Positions 3,876 to 59,138 of a stretch of 64,000 nt of DNA are shown piece by piece; within the stretch, counting starts at the first letter, position 1; every line of letters begins with the position of its first letter. Position numbers and translations under genes: made by a program. Origin of the DNA: Gaiella sp. (lineage in GTDB: Bacteria > Actinomycetota > Thermoleophilia > Gaiellales > Gaiellaceae); the NCBI RefSeq assembly GCF_039915195.1, contig NZ_JBDSNT010000105.1, positions 5,252-69,251 of the forward strand, in the 5' to 3' direction. Below the pieces are notes generated by a model. It made no database searches and was not told where the DNA came from. It saw only the letters and a program-made list of their open reading frames with translations.

Positions 3876-6082
<2,207 letters not shown>

Positions 6083-6083
<1 letters not shown>

Positions 6084-6360
6084 GGCGAGGTGTATCCGCG
6101 GTGGAAGAGCGTACCGCGGATTCACCTCCCCCTATCCCGGCCGATGCTTTCTGCCACGCTTCGCGTGGATCCTGAAGGGGGCCGCCCGCGACCCACTTTG
6201 AGAGAGTTGCTTGGCGACTGCTTTGGGCGCTCGAAGGGGGAGGTATATCCGCTGTGGAAGAGCGTACCGCGGATTCACCTCCCCCTATCCCGGCCGATGC
6301 TTTCTGCCACGCTTCGCGTGGATCCTGAAGGGGGCCGCCCCGCCTGGACGCTTCAGCCTG
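6083..6360 (+). repeat. Tandem duplication of a 105-bp structured element (6083-6187 and 6236-6340) plus conserved flank
   Basis: Two near-identical copies at offset 153. Each has a long hairpin (GAGGTGTATCCGCGGT...ACCGCGGATTCACCTC) and a CCACGC-TTC-GCGTGG mini-hairpin. Confidence 0.95.
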
Positions 6361-6499
6361 GCGGCGACGCCGGGCCGCGGCGAGTTTGGATCGGCGATAC
6401 ACCCGCTGTGTCGCAGTGGAGCCTGCGCAGCGCCCCTCGAACGAGGGATTGCGTCACCCTTCCGGGTGCCTACAACTGTGACAAGGGGAGAGGGGTCAT

Positions 6500-6538
6500 G
6501 TTGCTGCGGCCGTCCGGTTCGCCGGACGGCCGCGCAAC
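6500..6538. terminator. Strong hairpin between convergent genes, probable terminator
   Basis: GTTGC-T-GCGGCCGTCCGG-TTCG-CCGGACGGCCGC-GCAAC: perfect 12-bp stem plus a 5-bp extension, 25 nt past the thioesterase stop. No U-tract. Confidence 0.65.
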
Positions 6539-6563
6539 GGACATCGGAACGGAGCCCGGTCGC

Positions 6564-7022
6564 TCACTCTGCGACGTCGCCGAGCTCGAAGCTCCGCACC
6601 GTCTCGCGAACCGTTTCCGGGATCGGAAGTGGGGCACGGGCGACGGGATCGATCAGCACGAGCGTCTGGCTTCCCGTCACCATCAACTCGTCGTCGGTCA
6701 AGCTGACGGCCGCCACCTCATACGTGACGCTGGTTCGGCCAAGCCTGCTGACACGGACGAAGCACTCGAGAAGATCGTCGAACCGTGCCGGCGCGTGATA
6801 CTCGACGTTCGACGCGCGCATGACGTACTCCGCGCCGTCGACGCCGAGCGAGCCGAGATGCCGGTGGTATTCCGTGCGCGCGTGGTCGAAGTAGGGGAGG
6901 TAGCGGCCGTAGTAGACAACTCCTTGCGCATCCGTGTCCGAGAACCAGACCCTCGTCAGCGCCGAGTACTTGAACGGTGGCCGCCGGTCGGTGATGCGGC
7001 CGAGCTCGAGGGGGTCGCTCAC
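6564..7022 (-). CDS. Acyl-CoA thioesterase, YbgC/4-HBA-CoA hotdog family
   Basis: DTDAQGVVYYGRYLPYFDHAR motif. Confidence 0.9.
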   Translation of the reverse strand: MSDPLELGRITDRRPPFKYSALTRVWFSDTDAQGVVYYGRYLPYFDHARTEYHRHLGSLGVDGAEYVMRASNVEYHAPARFDDLLECFVRVSRLGRTSVTYEVAAVSLTDDELMVTGSQTLVLIDPVARAPLPIPETVRETVRSFELGDVAE

Positions 7023-7025
7023 GCG

Positions 7026-8372
7026 TCAGCCCTGGATCAGGGCGACGAGCTCGTCTCGACGCGCAGCCATCTCACTCTCGGTGAGCGCTTCGAGGTTGAG
7101 GCGGAGTAGTGGCTCGGTGTTCGAGGGGCGCACGTTGAAGTGCCACGTGTCGAAGTCGACCGAGACTCCATCGAGATGCGAGACGCGCCCGCCTTCAGCC
7201 GAATAGCGCTCCTCGATCTCCTGGAGCTTCAGTTGCACATCCGACACCGGCGTGTTGATCTCACCCGTAATGAAGTATCGCTCGCGGAACGGGCGCAGGA
7301 TCTCGGAGAGCTTCGCGCCCCGTGCCGAGATGAGCTCGAGCATGAGGAGAAACGGGACGACCCCTGTGTCGGCCTGGGTGAAGTCGCGGAAGTAGTAGTG
7401 CGCCGAGACCTCGCCGGCGAAGATCGCATGCTCCTCGCGCATCCGGTGCTTGATGTACGCGTGCCCGACGCGGTTCACGAGCGCATTCCCGCCCGCCGCC
7501 TCGATTGTTCGCGGAACGGCCCAGCTCGCCCGCACGTCGTAGAGAACCGTTCCACCGGGGCTCTTCCCGAGCATTACCTCGGCTAGAAGCGCAGTGACGA
7601 AGTCACCGGGGACGAACTCACCGGAGTCGTCGACGAAGAAGCACCGATCTGCGTCACCGTCGTACGCGACACCGAGATCGGCACCCTCCTCGCGTGTCTT
7701 CGCAACGATGAACTCCCGATTCGCCTCGAGCAGCGGGTTCGGCTCGTGATTCGGGAACGTCCCGTCCGGGTCGAAGTAGCACCGGACGACCTCGACCTGG
7801 GGGAGGCGCTCGAGAACGGGCGGCAGCATCGTGCCGGCCATTCCGTTCGCGGCGTCGACGACGATGCGCAGGGGGCTAATCGCCTCGAGGTCGACGAACG
7901 ACAGCACCTTCTCCACGAAGCCCGGCCACACGTCGAGTGGCGTGATCTCGCCGCGCCGCGCTACTGGCCCAAAGCCCGCCTGAGCGGCCGCAAGGATGTC
8001 CATCAGGCCGGAGTCGCCCCCGACCGGAAGGGCTCCACCTCGCACGATCTTCATCCCCGTGTACTGCTTGGGGTTGTGAGACGCCGTGACGCAGATCCCT
8101 CCGTCGAGGCCCAGCTCGCCGACGGCGTAATAGACCATCTCCGTTCCGACCATCCCGAGGTCGCGGACGTCTGCGCCGCCGTCTGCCGCGCCCTCCATCA
8201 CCGCGGCGGTCATGGTCGGGGCCGACACCCTCATGTCGCGGCCGACGGCGATCGCCGCGGGCTGAAAGTGCTCGACGTAGGCTCGCCCGATCGCGTATGC
8301 GCCTTTCTCGTCGAGCTCGGAGCCGTACAGACCACGCACGTCGTATGCCTTGAAGGCGCTCGGGTTCAACAC
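7026..8372 (-). CDS. Phosphomannomutase/phosphoglucomutase
   Basis: FKAYDVRG, TASHNP, DGDADR, GEVSAH and RPSNTEP motifs. Start moved to GTG 8372 (TACGAT-N7). Confidence 0.95.
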   Translation of the reverse strand: MLNPSAFKAYDVRGLYGSELDEKGAYAIGRAYVEHFQPAAIAVGRDMRVSAPTMTAAVMEGAADGGADVRDLGMVGTEMVYYAVGELGLDGGICVTASHNPKQYTGMKIVRGGALPVGGDSGLMDILAAAQAGFGPVARRGEITPLDVWPGFVEKVLSFVDLEAISPLRIVVDAANGMAGTMLPPVLERLPQVEVVRCYFDPDGTFPNHEPNPLLEANREFIVAKTREEGADLGVAYDGDADRCFFVDDSGEFVPGDFVTALLAEVMLGKSPGGTVLYDVRASWAVPRTIEAAGGNALVNRVGHAYIKHRMREEHAIFAGEVSAHYYFRDFTQADTGVVPFLLMLELISARGAKLSEILRPFRERYFITGEINTPVSDVQLKLQEIEERYSAEGGRVSHLDGVSVDFDTWHFNVRPSNTEPLLRLNLEALTESEMAARRDELVALIQG

Positions 8373-54826: not shown

Positions 54827-54907
54827 CCGCCTCTGCACGTCAGCCGGGTCGCGCGCGGTAGCGATACGGTGTCGCGAGGAGTCCGATTTCGACCAAGGGA
54901 GCAACGC

Positions 54908-55831
54908 GTGAGCGGTACGTCGCAGGAGCCGATCGGGTGGATCGGGTGCGGAGTCATGGGGAAGTCGATGTGCGGGCACCTGCTCGATGCCGGCCATCCG
55001 GTCACCGTCTACTCGCGCACGAAGTCGCGTGCCGACGACCTCGTTGCGCGCGGGGCCGTGTGGGTCGATACGCCGGCAGAGGTTGCCGCCCGCGCGAACG
55101 TCGTCTTCACCATGGTCGGCTTTCCGTCCGACGTTCGCGAGGTCGTCCTCGGCGAGCGCGGCACGCTCGTGGGCGCGCGGGCAGGGTCGATTCTCGTCGA
55201 CATGACGACGAGCGAGCCGACGCTGGCGCAGGAGATCAGTGTCGCGGCCCTCGCGCGCGGGCTCGAGTCGATCGACGCGCCGGTCTCCGGCGGGGATGTC
55301 GGTGCCCGCAACGCGACGCTCTCGATCATGATCGGCGGTGACGCCCCGGCGATCGAGCGGGTCAGGCCGCTGTTCGAGATCATGGGCAAGACGATCGTCC
55401 GGCAGGGCGACGCGGGAGCGGGCCAGCATGCGAAGATGGTCAACCAGGTCCTGATCGCGACCCTGATGATCGGCGTCTGCGAGGCGCTGCTGTACGCGTA
55501 CAGGGCCGGGCTCGATCTCGAGACAGTGCTCGAGGCGGTCTCCGGTGGCGCTGCGGGGTCCTGGTCGCTCACGAACTACGCGCCGCGGATGCTGAAGGGC
55601 GACTTCGAGCCGGGATTCTTCGTCGAGCACTTCATCAAGGACATGGAGATCGCGCTCGGTGAGGCGCGGCGAATGAACCTCGCGCTCCCGGGCCTCGCGC
55701 TTGCACACGAGCTGTATCTCGCGCTCCGCGCTCAGGGCGGAGGGCGGAAGGGGACGCAGGCGCTGTTGCTCGCGCTTGCTCGGCTCTCGGACGTCACCTG
55801 GGAGCCGAGGGTGAGCCCGGCGACAGGCTGA
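54908..55831 (+). CDS. NAD(P)-dependent oxidoreductase, 3-hydroxyisobutyrate dehydrogenase family
   Basis: [24 protein letters not shown] and HFIKD. Confidence 0.92.
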
Positions 55832-55920
55832 AGCGTCCAAAGCTGGCCACTGGCCCTCGAAGCGCTCCTTCACTCCCGGCCCGCGGGCGGCCCTTCGGGA
55901 TCAGGCGAAGCCGGCAGAAA
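55824..55920 (-). repeat. Diverged inverted copy of the element found at 6148-6360
   Basis: CAGGCTGAAGCGTCCA (55824-55839) is the exact reverse complement of 6345-6360. GGGCGGCCCTTCGGGATCAGGCGAAGCCGGCAGAAA (55885-55920) matches the reverse complement of 6148-6187 and 6301-6340. Confidence 0.8.
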
Positions 55921-55923
55921 AAC

Positions 55924-57897
55924 TCAGGCCAGATGACGGGGAAAGCTGCGCTCGAAGCGCTGCTCGCGGCGGAACGGCTCCACGCCCGGCACCGGTGTGA
56001 CCTCCTCGACGACCAGGTCGATCACGACGTGGTACGCCTCGGCGTCCGAGTGCATGTCGAGCCGTGCCTCCGTGCGCACGTCTGCCTCGGGCCACGTGAT
56101 GCGGTACACCGTCTTCGCTCGAGCCCACGCGTGGGCCGGATCATCGAGCGAGACGCCGACGGTTCCCTCGTACCCTTCCTCGCAGCGCGCTCCGAATGGC
56201 GCCTCGTAGATCGAGCCGTAGCTCGTGACCGCGCGCGTCTCGTGTGCGAGCTGATCCTCCTCGATCACCCACACGGTCGGCGGCTGCTCGACCTCCTTCG
56301 AGGGGGCGTGCGTGTCCTTGCCCGTCGTCGGTGGGAGGGTCGGGGCGGGGAGCGGTGGCGGCCCCGAGAGAACGGGCAGAACCAGCTCCACGCTTCCCCG
56401 CTCGACCTGGAGCGGGGCGCCGCTCGGTGGCGGCCAGGTGTTCGGCCAGTCCGCGCCGGAGAGCGCGAGCCGTACCCTATGGCCCTCCTCGAAGATCCAC
56501 GACGTCGCCTCGAGCTCGATCTCGACGGGCGTTGGAACGCCCGGTTCGAGGGCAACCGGCACCGTGTGGCCGTTGCGGTGGGTGAGGTTGAGAATCGCGC
56601 GCCCCGCGAGCGCCGAGACGCCGTCCGGGAAGACGTCACACAGACGTACCGAGAGGTAAGCGACCGGCACGGGCGAGGTGACCGTGAGCTTCACACGTGG
56701 GTGTCCCATCACGTCGAGATCGGCCTCCGAGAGATCCCAGTCGTAGGTGAGCGAGAGCGCGTCGTCGAAGCGCTGGTCGGACGGAAGGCCCCACGGGCCG
56801 CTCCCGGCGCAGGAGATCCAGGCGGCGCGGCCGACGTCGCCGCGCACGTGAATCGTCTCGAGACCCTCTCCCTCGGGCTTGAGGACGTGCTCCATCAGTC
56901 GCTCGGCCGGCCAGGTCGACTCGCTCCGCCATTCGCCGTTGACGAGCGCGAGATCGGGTGCGGGACGGGTGGAGCGGCGGGCGAACACCGCGATCGGCGG
57001 TTCGGCATCGACGCCGTTCTCCTCATCCGCGAGCCAGCGACGGAACCAGCGGATCAGCTCGGGAACGAGGTCGATGTGCGGGCCGGGCCGCGCGGTTGCC
57101 GTGGACTGGTGGCCCCAGGGGCCGAGAATCACCCGCTTCGGGCAGCGCAGCGCCTCGAACCCACGCAGCGCAATGTTCGTGTACCCGTCGGCCCAGCCGG
57201 CGACGATCATCGTCGCGCACCTGATCCTTGCGTAGTCGGGCCGCACCGAGCCGTGGCGCCAGTAGGGGCCGTCGGTCTGCTCCTCGAACCAACGCAGCAG
57301 CCACGGCTCGACGCCGTCGATCCGCTTGGCCCATTCCTCGCGCCAGCCCTCGCCGAACACCTGAGGCACGGGTGGAAGTGCATTGCACGCCACCATGTAG
57401 AGCGGCCAGTCGATCAGGTCGAGCGCTTTGACGGCGCCACCCATGTAGTGGACGTCGTCCAGATAGCGATCGTCGGACGCGTAGATCGGGGCGATCGCGT
57501 GGAGCGCAGGGGGGCGCAGGCAGGCGACCTGGAGCGAGTTGAACCCGGACCACGACGTGCCGTACATGCCGACGCGGCCGTTCGACCAGTCCTGCTCTGC
57601 GAGCCAGGCGATCACCTGGCAGATGTCATCGAGCTCCGCTGCGGTGTACTCGTCCGTCGCGATGCCGCTCGACGAGCCCGTGCCGCGAATGTCCAGACGG
57701 CAGACCACGAGCCCGCCCTCCTGGCACAGCCGCTCGTACTCGCCGACGTACGACGACGTCAGGTCGTCCATCCGGTACGGCAGCGCCTCGAGCGCAACCG
57801 GGGCCGGCTGCACATCCGGCAGCCACAGCTGGGCAGCGAGGCGCGTGCCGTCTGCGACAGTGATGAAGATGTGTCGGTGCTCCATGCCCGGGATCAT
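55924..57897 (-). CDS. CocE/NonD family hydrolase (X-Pro dipeptidyl-peptidase-like)
   Basis: DIRGTGSSSG, GMYGTSWSG nucleophile, GWADGY, GPWGH and a C-terminal PepX-like domain. Start 57897 or 57885. Confidence 0.9.
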   Translation of the reverse strand: MIPGMEHRHIFITVADGTRLAAQLWLPDVQPAPVALEALPYRMDDLTSSYVGEYERLCQEGGLVVCRLDIRGTGSSSGIATDEYTAAELDDICQVIAWLAEQDWSNGRVGMYGTSWSGFNSLQVACLRPPALHAIAPIYASDDRYLDDVHYMGGAVKALDLIDWPLYMVACNALPPVPQVFGEGWREEWAKRIDGVEPWLLRWFEEQTDGPYWRHGSVRPDYARIRCATMIVAGWADGYTNIALRGFEALRCPKRVILGPWGHQSTATARPGPHIDLVPELIRWFRRWLADEENGVDAEPPIAVFARRSTRPAPDLALVNGEWRSESTWPAERLMEHVLKPEGEGLETIHVRGDVGRAAWISCAGSGPWGLPSDQRFDDALSLTYDWDLSEADLDVMGHPRVKLTVTSPVPVAYLSVRLCDVFPDGVSALAGRAILNLTHRNGHTVPVALEPGVPTPVEIELEATSWIFEEGHRVRLALSGADWPNTWPPPSGAPLQVERGSVELVLPVLSGPPPLPAPTLPPTTGKDTHAPSKEVEQPPTVWVIEEDQLAHETRAVTSYGSIYEAPFGARCEEGYEGTVGVSLDDPAHAWARAKTVYRITWPEADVRTEARLDMHSDAEAYHVVIDLVVEEVTPVPGVEPFRREQRFERSFPRHLA

Positions 57898-57959
57898 CCC
57901 AGGTAGGGTCGCTGCGTGCGCTGTCCGGGGAATGCGAAGCGTTTGCAGCCGGCCGAGTT

Positions 57960-59138
57960 GTGCCGTACTCCCCGAAGAGCGCACTAACCTTGCACCTGCG
58001 CCCGACAGCCGAGCAGAGCGCCCTTCGGGCAGACGCTGCCGCCTTCTGTGCGGGCCTGCGGCCGCTCCTCGAGAGCGAACCGGGGTGGTGGCGGCAGGGG
58101 ATGCTCTCGGACGGTGACTCGGTTGCCGTCAACCGGGCCCTCGGCGAGGCGGGATGGATCGGGATGTCGTGGCCTGTCGACCTCGGTGGCCGGGGGCTCT
58201 CACGGCTGACGGCCACGCTGGTCGAGGAGGTCTTCGGCTACCACTGGCTGCCGCTCTCGTCGTACCTCCTCTCGTACAAGACGATCGGCGCGGCAATCGA
58301 GCGCTTTGGCTCGCCCGAGCTCGTAGAGCAGCTTCTGCCGCCGATCGCGCGCGGTGAGCTCGTGTTCTGCCAGGGCTTCTCGGAGCCGGGCTCCGGAAGC
58401 GATCTCGGCTCCCTGACGACACGGGCGGACCTGCGCGGCGACACCTACGTCGTGAGCGGCCACAAGATCTGGACATCGAGCGCGCAGCTCGCCGACTGGA
58501 TCTACCTCGCGGTGCGCACGGACGCCGATGCAAAGCACCGCGGGATCTCGGTTCTCGTCTGCCCCGTCGACACGCCCGGGATCGAAGTGCGGACGTTCGC
58601 GACGCTCGGTGGCGGCCATCTCTGCGAGACGTTCCTCGACGGCGTCGAGATCCCGGCTGAGAACCTGGTCGGCGAGGTAAACGGGGGCTGGGACATCCTG
58701 ATGCACACGCTCGACTACGAGCGCGTAACGGCGGAGAAGCTCGGCGGATTCGCCTGGGTGCTCGACGCCGTCGAGGAACGGCTGCGCGAGACGGATCGGC
58801 TCGATCGTCCCGCGTCGGACAAGCTCGCCCGGCTGCGGGGCGAGCTACACGCGTCGCGGCTGCTTTCGTTCCGCGCTGCCGACACGCTCGACCGCGGCCT
58901 TCCGGGGAGCGCAACATCGGCGATGGCCAAGCTGTCGGGTGCGCGACTCGCACAGGCAATCGGGGATGCGGCCGTCGACCTGCTTGGCCTCGAGGGGCTC
59001 GGTGACGCTTCGCCGGATGCGGCGGTACAGGGACGCGCGGCCGCGCTCTATCGCGCGTCGGTCGGATCGACGATCGCGGGTGGCACGGCCGAGGTGCAGC
59101 AGCTCGTCATCGCGCGACGAGGACTGGGGCTGCGATGA
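57960..59138 (+). CDS. Acyl-CoA dehydrogenase (full-length subunit)
   Basis: QGFSEPGSGSDL, GHKIWTS, GEVNGGW and IAGGTAEVQ. Start uncertain (TTG 57990 possible). Confidence 0.93.
   Translation: MPYSPKSALTLHLRPTAEQSALRADAAAFCAGLRPLLESEPGWWRQGMLSDGDSVAVNRALGEAGWIGMSWPVDLGGRGLSRLTATLVEEVFGYHWLPLSSYLLSYKTIGAAIERFGSPELVEQLLPPIARGELVFCQGFSEPGSGSDLGSLTTRADLRGDTYVVSGHKIWTSSAQLADWIYLAVRTDADAKHRGISVLVCPVDTPGIEVRTFATLGGGHLCETFLDGVEIPAENLVGEVNGGWDILMHTLDYERVTAEKLGGFAWVLDAVEERLRETDRLDRPASDKLARLRGELHASRLLSFRAADTLDRGLPGSATSAMAKLSGARLAQAIGDAAVDLLGLEGLGDASPDAAVQGRAAALYRASVGSTIAGGTAEVQQLVIARRGLGLR

Follow-up and report, generated by a model that had tools for sequence, protein, structure and literature searches.

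The window analyzed here, a stretch of 64,000 nucleotides from an actinobacterium of the genus Gaiella (contig NZ_JBDSNT010000105.1), carries directly after a relA/spoT-type gene a tandem pair of structured repeats, whose units are each built around three successive hairpins that we term H1, H2, and H3. These H1-H3 repeats constitute an undescribed modular family of small DNA repeats in a few soil Gaiellales. We propose, with a probability that we would place at roughly 55%, that the tandem pair represents two units of a non-autonomous modular DNA repeat, which is spreading in a few Gaiellaceae lineages and replacing the intrinsic terminator at the 3' ends of genes. The most unusual feature of the family is that the host gene's final codons and stop codon are mirrored in the 3' arm of H1. 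An earlier note on this DNA, made from the sequence alone, missed this mirroring; its general proposal of an unnamed, dispersed, structured repeat family akin to repetitive extragenic palindromes (REPs) or miniature inverted-repeat transposable elements (MITEs) is supported by our analysis, and the further copies, stem covariation, and insertion polymorphism that it named as checks were all found. We use G000 as the label for this genome, with the other G and L labels standing for the genomes of relatives or for individual loci.

Modular organization of the tandem pair and its family

The relA/spoT-type (p)ppGpp synthetase-hydrolase gene (3876-6083, plus strand; Pfam domains HD_4, RelA_SpoT, TGS, and ACT_4) is followed by direct repeats at 6082-6187 and 6235-6340, each of 106 nt, 97% identical to each other and offset by 153 nt. 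This bears out the previously reported pair of ~105-bp copies, each with a long hairpin followed by a conserved "block 1", with H2, the linker GATCCTGAAG, and H3 present in both. In the first unit (unit A, plus strand), H1 is a long hairpin (6074-6141) with 29-nt arms (6074-6102 and 6113-6141) that are 93% complementary, and an invariant apex (6098-6117) comprised of a 5-bp stem and a 10-nt loop. Directly 3' of it lies a U-tract-like T-rich linker (6142-6153), followed by H2 (6154-6168; a 6-bp stem with a TTC loop, the minus strand of which reads GC-GAA-GC), the nearly invariant and unpaired GATCCTGAAG linker (6168-6177), H3 (6177-6194; a GC-rich 6-bp hairpin with a CCCG tetraloop), and a weakly conserved tail or spacer (6194-6234) that is not found in a sister assembly. 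In unit B, on the same strand, the right arm of H1 (6235-6294, apex 6251-6270) is the same as that of unit A and the left arm is a diverged copy; H2 (6307-6321), the GATCCTGAAG linker (6321-6330), and a truncated H3 (6330-6344) then follow. On the minus strand the invariant H1 loop (at 6098-6117) reads TACGCT or TATGCT, which fits the actinobacterial -10 consensus TANNNT and might constitute an antisense promoter.

Comparison of copies recovers the same order of modules throughout, namely H1, the T-rich linker, H2, GATCCTGAAG, and H3, and also establishes their separability: copies with H1 only, copies with H2-H3 only, and arrays of 2 to 4 units all occur. The H1 apex takes the form GCG-R-T GGAAGAGC-R-T A-Y-CGC, giving the 5-bp stem and 10-nt loop, and the stem that encloses it differs at every locus. 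The 10 columns before H2 contain 50% T across 55 copies, as against 16.5% T in the genome. H2 has a stem of 5-6 bp and a TTC loop in which only the middle base varies (TTC, TGC, TCC, or TAC, i.e., G-N-A on the minus strand). H3 occurs in two forms, one being a 6-bp GC stem with a CCCG-type tetraloop and the other a GGGAACC stem with a TACG loop that is followed by a C-rich tail; the loops seen on the plus strand are CCCG, CUCG, CAAG, UCCG, and UACG.

The pairing in all three hairpins is maintained by extensive covariation. For H1 we aligned 105 non-redundant copies without gaps, taking the apex and 16 nt on each side, and found pairing in 87% of cells, compared with 36-47% when the partner was slid, and 654 cells with a double change versus 217 in shuffles. 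Each of the 16 flanking pairs occurs in several Watson-Crick forms, with all four pairs in use across the 16 flanking stem positions. The left arm is semi-conserved and purine-rich (GGGGA..CC) from -9 to -1 and locus-specific farther out. For H2 and H3, 96% of cells are paired in 55 non-redundant copies as against 29-52% with the partner slid; in H2 the figure reaches 99.6%, with pair 15-25 being AU (26 copies), GC (23), or UA (5) with a single exception, and in H3 it is 94%, with CG/GC/UA swaps. The GC-GAA-GC core and compensatory stem change reported from the first three copies are real and extend to all 55. We also considered whether H2-H3 might be coding, and discarded this reading because the linker ATG lacks conservation and swaps in the stem alter the codons.

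A third type of repeat, with a GTAG tag as in classical REPs (CCGTAGGGGC followed by a short palindrome), was observed at four loci of related metagenome-assembled genomes (MAGs; L015, L105, L115, and L142), and at L105 it stands in place of an H1 right arm.

The 3' arm of H1 mirrors the end of the host gene

The outer left arm of H1 in unit A is formed by the last 7 coding bases of relA together with its TAG stop codon (6081-6083), and the right arm is the mirror of this gene end. Given that RelA ends at the same residue with or without the element (G017, G005, and L312 are empty at relA), the left arm is native coding sequence and the right arm its inverted copy. The right arm moreover tracks synonymous and stop-codon changes between orthologs. 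In this genome relA ends in CCG GGA TAG and faces the right arm CTATCCCGG, in L314 the end is CCT GGT TGA with the right arm TCAACCAGG, and in L106 CCG GGT TGA is matched by TCAACCCGG, such that TGA faces TCA; between this genome and L314 alone there are four compensated differences. The same holds at a locus on contig C87, where the gene ends in GTC TGA with TCAGAC as the right arm in this genome, and in TTC TGA with TCAGAA in G008 and G004; G023 and G377 are empty here and the gene is one codon longer in them. At C138:97293 a flank motif that is kept in four element-free relatives is mirrored in the right arm in this genome.

At some loci the element also alters the protein terminus. In the two element-bearing genomes, an rnc-like gene terminates 6-15 residues sooner. 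At the C25 locus (G000 C25:5960-6030; L131:2060-2130) the upstream open reading frame (ORF), its native stop being lost, continues through the whole of H1 as far as a TGA in the linker, which adds ~16 element-encoded residues to the protein. In the rnc-like gene end of G008 (L145, ~1-60), a 10-nt segment, GRGCCGCTGA, that includes the final codons and TGA stop occurs as three successive copies just before the H1 apex, and looks like a product of slippage within the left arm.

Location at gene ends

The association with gene ends, mostly in the sense orientation, is a property of the family at large. Of the H1 copies with a stem of 5 bp or more (n = 146), 78 have a sense ORF with high third-position G+C ending alongside, versus 14 for the antisense control. 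In 52 of these 78 the stop codon falls within the paired arm of H1; the median position of the stop is 13 nt before the apex. Most of the other H1 copies are inner units of arrays or copies after tRNA genes; as confirmed by ARAGORN, H1 directly adjoins tRNA-Leu (L046) and tRNA-Met (L099), and is found at a distance of 17 nt downstream of tRNA-His (L104). Relatives without the element have at the same site unrelated plain GC hairpins with T-rich tails, which are different in each species, indicating that the element occupies the position of the terminator. The further statement that both loci recognized in the window lie between convergent genes is also correct, with relA being faced by a minus-strand thioesterase gene (6564-7022).

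Copy number, distribution, and turnover

The source genome is a MAG of 2.66 Mb with 67% G+C in 153 contigs and an estimated completeness of 92%. It contains 29 H1-type hairpins, compared with 1 in a reversed-sequence control, and 61 H2 motifs, compared with 12, thereby excluding chance; we estimate a content of about 30 H1 and 40-50 H2 copies. Several of the copies sit at contig ends. A scan for the exact apex in one genome per prokaryote species matched more than 114 loci, and among the 80 matches listed, 64 belong to Thermoleophilia or Gaiella MAGs. The 16 listed matches in other phyla lack a stem (0-5 bp only), and by our estimate about nine or more matches are expected by chance. Within Thermoleophilia the distribution is patchy: in an even sample of 401 genomes the apex occurs in only 4, namely G000 (15 copies), G377 (8), G405 (5; a member of another genus), and one with a single mismatched match. 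Among 24 members of the genus, copies are present only in the four nearest relatives (G004, G008, G017, and G023). Metagenomes scanned with the 3' end of relA yielded mainly distant actinobacterial relA genes, with H1 in only 2 of 120. Searches for exact matches to two of the proteins encoded in the window returned none.

Presence and absence at seven orthologous loci are nested among the relatives: two insertions are confined to G000, two are shared with G008 only, one with G008 and G004, and one with G023, while the relA insertion is shared with several species. The two insertions specific to G000 have a default-like stem (approximately GGCGGGGAGGGCC and its complement) without mirroring of the flank, and the same stem recurs at the inner units of arrays in many MAGs. 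In this small sample, the mirroring of flanks in the older, shared copies and its absence from the G000-only insertions suggest a progressive re-templating of the arms.

Unit number is variable even between closely similar assemblies. In the sister assembly GCA_046594565.1, with flanks that are 99.5-99.7% identical, there is one unit at the fmdB locus versus four here, and one unit at relA versus two, the latter locus being exactly 153 bp shorter. The relA H1 of the sister assembly is a perfect 29-bp palindrome, as against two mismatches in each left arm here.

Proposed termination by a mobile cassette and the case for it

In view of its position, orientation, hairpin strength, and T-rich tract, the most economical function for the element would be that of a terminator or a 3'-end cap. 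We propose that H1 together with the T-rich tract would end transcription or cap the 3' end of the message, and that H2 and H3 would add stability or serve as back-ups, with the invariant apex and the linkers being recognized by a putative trans-acting protein for mobilization or function. The invariant apex, together with the linker and the H2 and H3 hairpins, argues for an additional sequence-specific partner. New copies would arrive with a default stem of ~13 bp, following which intrastrand template switching during replication would keep both arms strictly complementary and, with the left flank as template, lengthen the right arm outward; by this proposal, such copying is what brings the stop codon and coding bases into the stem. 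The strict Watson-Crick pairing of the arms, the multi-base compensated differences, and the outward growth of the stem all fit such switching, which can create as well as maintain perfect stems (Monttinen and Loytynoja 2022, PMC8794818). The number of units would change by slippage or recombination between units.

Several observations sit uneasily with this proposal. Termination is read from position and shape, and a consensus promoter/terminator scan of 5500-7000, which requires a loop of at most 8 nt and 5 T in 8, made no calls, with H1 going uncalled by it (its loop is of 10 nt and its T tract imperfect). A plain terminator needs neither an invariant loop nor an invariant linker nor a further pair of conserved hairpins. 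Copies that run antisense to the genes on both sides also exist (e.g., C138:97293). Orthologous copies in sister species may have entirely different inner stems, which template switching alone explains poorly and to which conversion among copies or renewed insertion may have contributed. The differences in unit number between near-identical assemblies could be the result of assembly collapse. Finally, no transposase, terminal inverted repeats, direct target duplication, or autonomous parent was found. The left end of the unit is the H1 palindrome and the right end H3 with its tail, with no inverted similarity between them, and in place of a direct target-site duplication the flank is repeated in inverted form (e.g., GCCGGGATAG facing CTATCCCGGC). 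A self-comparison of this 92%-complete MAG revealed no repeat of the size of an insertion sequence (IS) carrying the modules, although MAGs often lose IS copies. Likewise, among 1211 ORFs at ~110 element loci there was no recurrent neighbor gene, only ordinary paralog families.

A bolder version of this proposal, which we advance only tentatively and consider less probable, is that these are portable terminators belonging to an undescribed class of mobile elements. In it, a putative dedicated enzyme would recognize the fixed tip, and the stem would be rebuilt from the target by hairpin-primed (fold-back) synthesis, thereby capturing the stop and the last codons. Should the main proposal hold, the 3' ends of genes in abundant and barely cultured soil actinobacteria would be shaped by a mobile, self-repairing terminator cassette, and the evolution of synonymous sites and stop codons in a gene would be tied to a neighboring non-coding arm. 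Copying at the level of DNA, rather than selection on RNA, would then be yielding textbook covariation, calling for caution in the covariation-based discovery of RNA structures. The invariant apex would predict a sequence-specific partner protein that could be found by phyletic profiling, and the compact three-hairpin module would be a candidate terminator part for high-GC hosts.

Alternative explanations

The covariation raises the alternative that the element is chiefly a functional RNA of the 3' untranslated region (UTR) under selection in the transcript, e.g., a stabilizer, a processing site, a protein platform, or a 3'-UTR-derived small RNA. The sense orientation of the copies just after genes would be in keeping with such a role, as would the strong conservation of all three hairpins along with invariant unpaired linkers, and the loops of H3 (CCCG, CUCG, CAAG, UCCG, and UACG) fit the stable YNMG/UNCG tetraloop classes, to which we presume them to belong. 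The whole unit is predicted to fold at about -76 kcal/mol with a z-score of -6.7 on the plus strand. However, the minus strand folds equally well (z-score -6.5), and the nature of the mismatches in H1 points away from RNA: G-T (55) is no commoner than A-C (58), whereas selection on an RNA normally leaves a large excess of G-U pairs. The equal counts suggest that the arms behave as DNA palindromes or are corrected by copying. The patchy, strain-variable distribution is unlike that of a conserved regulatory RNA, and the copies that lie antisense to their neighbors are a further difficulty. The Rfam scan over the window, suggested at the outset as a check, returned no family at the gathering thresholds, and at E-values up to 10 yielded only generic microRNA-hairpin models far below threshold. 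We regard selection on the transcript as an unlikely primary explanation.

If the stems are DNA palindromes without an excess of wobble pairs, a second alternative is that they are REPs, or the REP-derived REPINs, moved as single-stranded DNA hairpins by a Y1 HUH transposase, i.e., a REP-associated tyrosine transposase (RAYT) or an IS200/IS605 TnpA, with H2 and/or the H1 apex as the substrate. This was the link drawn in the earlier note. The sequence d(GCGAAGC) forms an unusually stable mini-hairpin in single-stranded DNA, and short hairpins are the substrates of HUH/Y1 (IS200/605, REP-associated) transposases. The H2 loop, varying only at its middle base, reads G-N-A on the minus strand, which we take to fit the known stable GNA mini-hairpin, and the patchy distribution and polymorphic insertions would be expected of such a system. 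The genome also has a single Y1/RAYT-type gene (contig C128; L127, 1204-1914, minus strand), coding for a protein of 237 aa with an HUH motif (Pfam Y1_Tnp, 26.8 bits). Yet this gene is bracketed by inverted 33-nt hairpins of its own (L127:1173-1917) with the core GGGGTGAGGC-TTTA/TGAA-GCCTCACCC, unlike the element in sequence, and no H1, H2, or H3 module adjoins it. Its ortholog in G008, 89% identical, has an internal stop. RAYT homologs are present in 28 of 41 relatives, many of them without the element, as against about 5 with it, and G023 has the element without a RAYT match. At the ~110 element loci no recurrent gene is flanked by the H1-H3 modules. Moreover, the element has no conserved GTAG-type 5' tag, and where REPs conserve their stems, it is the loop that is conserved here. 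Given the different flanking hairpins and the non-matching distribution, we reject the Y1/RAYT gene as the mobilizer, and consider a REP/REPIN system of this type decidedly unlikely.

A third alternative is that the assembly duplicated the unit at relA in error, a repeat loop having been traversed once too often and only one unit being real, as the single unit of the sister assembly and the corresponding one-versus-four difference at fmdB would suggest. An equally or more probable reading is that the array collapsed in that assembly. Between the two units, 3 of 106 positions are mismatched and the left arms are not alike, and unit A has a stretch of ~48 nt without counterpart in the sister assembly, including an intact H3 and a tail homologous to the tails of other species. 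Two units are also present at the orthologous relA locus of other species (L106 and L267), and tandem arrays are found on 0.9-1.6 Mb contigs of independent MAGs (L082). The private ~48 nt together with the paired relA units of L106 and L267 lead us to judge the pair real, with a deletion or collapse in the sister assembly, and an artefact to be improbable.

Very improbable, finally, is a host DNA site for a nucleoid, topoisomerase, or recombination protein that spread by gene conversion rather than transposition, in the manner of the bacterial interspersed mosaic elements (BIMEs) that are bound by IHF and gyrase: the invariant loop and linkers, the palindromic behavior of the stems, and the placement of copies between convergent genes, where supercoiling accumulates, would suit it, but no partner protein was identified, a housekeeping site would be expected in more than a few of the family's species, and the strong sense bias toward the upstream gene is unexpected of a symmetric DNA-binding site.

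The truncated third copy and a second class of hairpins

The proposed mobile terminator has one further representative in the window, a truncated copy lacking H1 on the minus strand (55878-55923), which begins directly after the TGA stop of its host gene, coding for an S15-family X-Pro dipeptidyl-peptidase (55924-57984, minus strand; Pfam). It is comprised of the T-rich linker (55914-55923), H2 (55902-55915), the GATCCTGAAG-type linker (55893-55901), and H3 (55878-55892). In the orthologous copy of G008, H1 is retained and H2 is missing. The peptidase gene is convergent with a plus-strand gene for an NAD-binding oxidoreductase of the 3-hydroxyisobutyrate/6-phosphogluconate dehydrogenase type (54869-55831; Pfam).

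This locus had been described as an inverted copy ~50 kb away that keeps two conserved blocks. The copy itself and an exact 16-mer shared with the relA locus stand; H1, however, is missing, and the second block ("block 2") is not a part of the element. It is instead a separate, weaker class of hairpins, with a variable stem around a GGC-TGAA/TTCA-GCC apex, of which there are ~13 copies in this genome. At the relA locus it is represented by a degenerate copy (6345-6374, plus strand), and a second copy (55816-55839, minus strand) extends over the final codons of the oxidoreductase gene and its TGA stop (55829-55831). The 16-mer, TGGACGCTTCAGCCTG, lies in these two copies (6345-6360, plus strand, and 55824-55839, minus strand), compared with 0.08 matches in shuffles. 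The earlier suggestion that the oxidoreductase gene takes its stop codon from the element consequently concerns this second class, to which it might still apply, with the TGA sitting in the block 2 loop, outside H1-H3; the G008 ortholog ends at the identical position. Block 2 hairpins also occur at the gene ends of several relatives, in tandem in G004, and at L288 (~1430-1500), and their apex is similar to the one found in the hairpins on either side of the RAYT gene.

Downstream of the tandem pair, the minus-strand gene convergent with relA codes for a 4HBT-type thioesterase (6564-7022; third-position G+C 0.84; 4HBT Pfam domains), in preference to which an overlapping plus-strand ORF (6498-7106) was dropped. 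It has a plain terminator hairpin of its own beside it (6506-6533). A small hairpin followed by a GAGGGATTGC box at 6433-6459 is kept beside the thioesterase terminator in G004 (L003) and L314, and L009 has four tandem hairpins of this type. In L312 and L315, with RelA at least 90% identical, a TPR-repeat gene lies between relA and the thioesterase gene; it is absent in G000 and L314, where the repeat units occupy that interval (6084-6563).

Comparison with known systems

Our searches of the literature on Gaiella repeats and on mobile terminators or stop-codon hairpin repeats retrieved no description of such an element. Its closest parallels in habit are the REP/BIME/REPIN elements with RAYTs of Proteobacteria, which are likewise short GC-rich hairpin repeats outside genes, numbering in the tens, that frequently follow stop codons or lie between convergent genes and sometimes form tandem clusters; these can act as terminators or stabilizers of mRNA. 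They are set apart by the conservation of the stem and of a 5' tetranucleotide tag (GTAG/GGAG) with a varying loop, whereas here the loop is invariant and the stem locus-specific. MITEs (e.g., the Correia elements of Neisseria, ERIC/IRU, and bcr1) are similarly small, non-autonomous, dispersed, and insertion-polymorphic, and can carry terminators or promoters, but the present element has neither terminal inverted repeats nor direct target-site duplications, nor was a parent IS with matching ends found in the 92%-complete MAG or at the ~110 element loci.

In its design, though not in its sequence, the element recalls the pneumococcal BOX repeats (boxA-boxB(n)-boxC, known along with RUP and SPRITE), which are intergenic hairpin modules present in strain-variable number, with proposed effects on the expression of their neighbors, and for which we know of no mobilizing enzyme. 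Both have separable modules and a number of modules or units that varies between strains; BOX differs in its unrelated sequence and host phylum, and, as its features are generally understood, does not mirror flanks and is not locked onto stop codons. With intrinsic (Rho-independent) terminators the element shares a GC-rich hairpin downstream of a gene in the sense orientation followed by a T-rich, if imperfect, tract, but it departs from them in its stems of 15-30 bp, its invariant 10-nt loop, its two additional hairpins and fixed linkers, and the repetition of its sequence across loci and genomes.

The remaining parallels are with a motif and a process. The d(GCGNAGC) mini-hairpin, reportedly described by Hirao and co-workers, corresponds to the minus strand of H2, which reads GC-GNA-GC in nearly every copy with only N varying; that motif is physicochemical rather than a genetic element, and in H2 it is embedded in a covarying stem of 5-6 bp within a larger module. 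Quasipalindrome correction by template switching (the Ripley model; PMC8794818) produces reverse-complement copies, perfected stems, and multi-base compensatory changes in one step, matching the strictly Watson-Crick arms of the element, the tracking of coding changes by one arm, and the multi-base, compensated differences between orthologs. It is, however, a general process of mutation, whereas the H1-H3 repeats are a dispersed family that has repeatedly captured the stop codons of its hosts.

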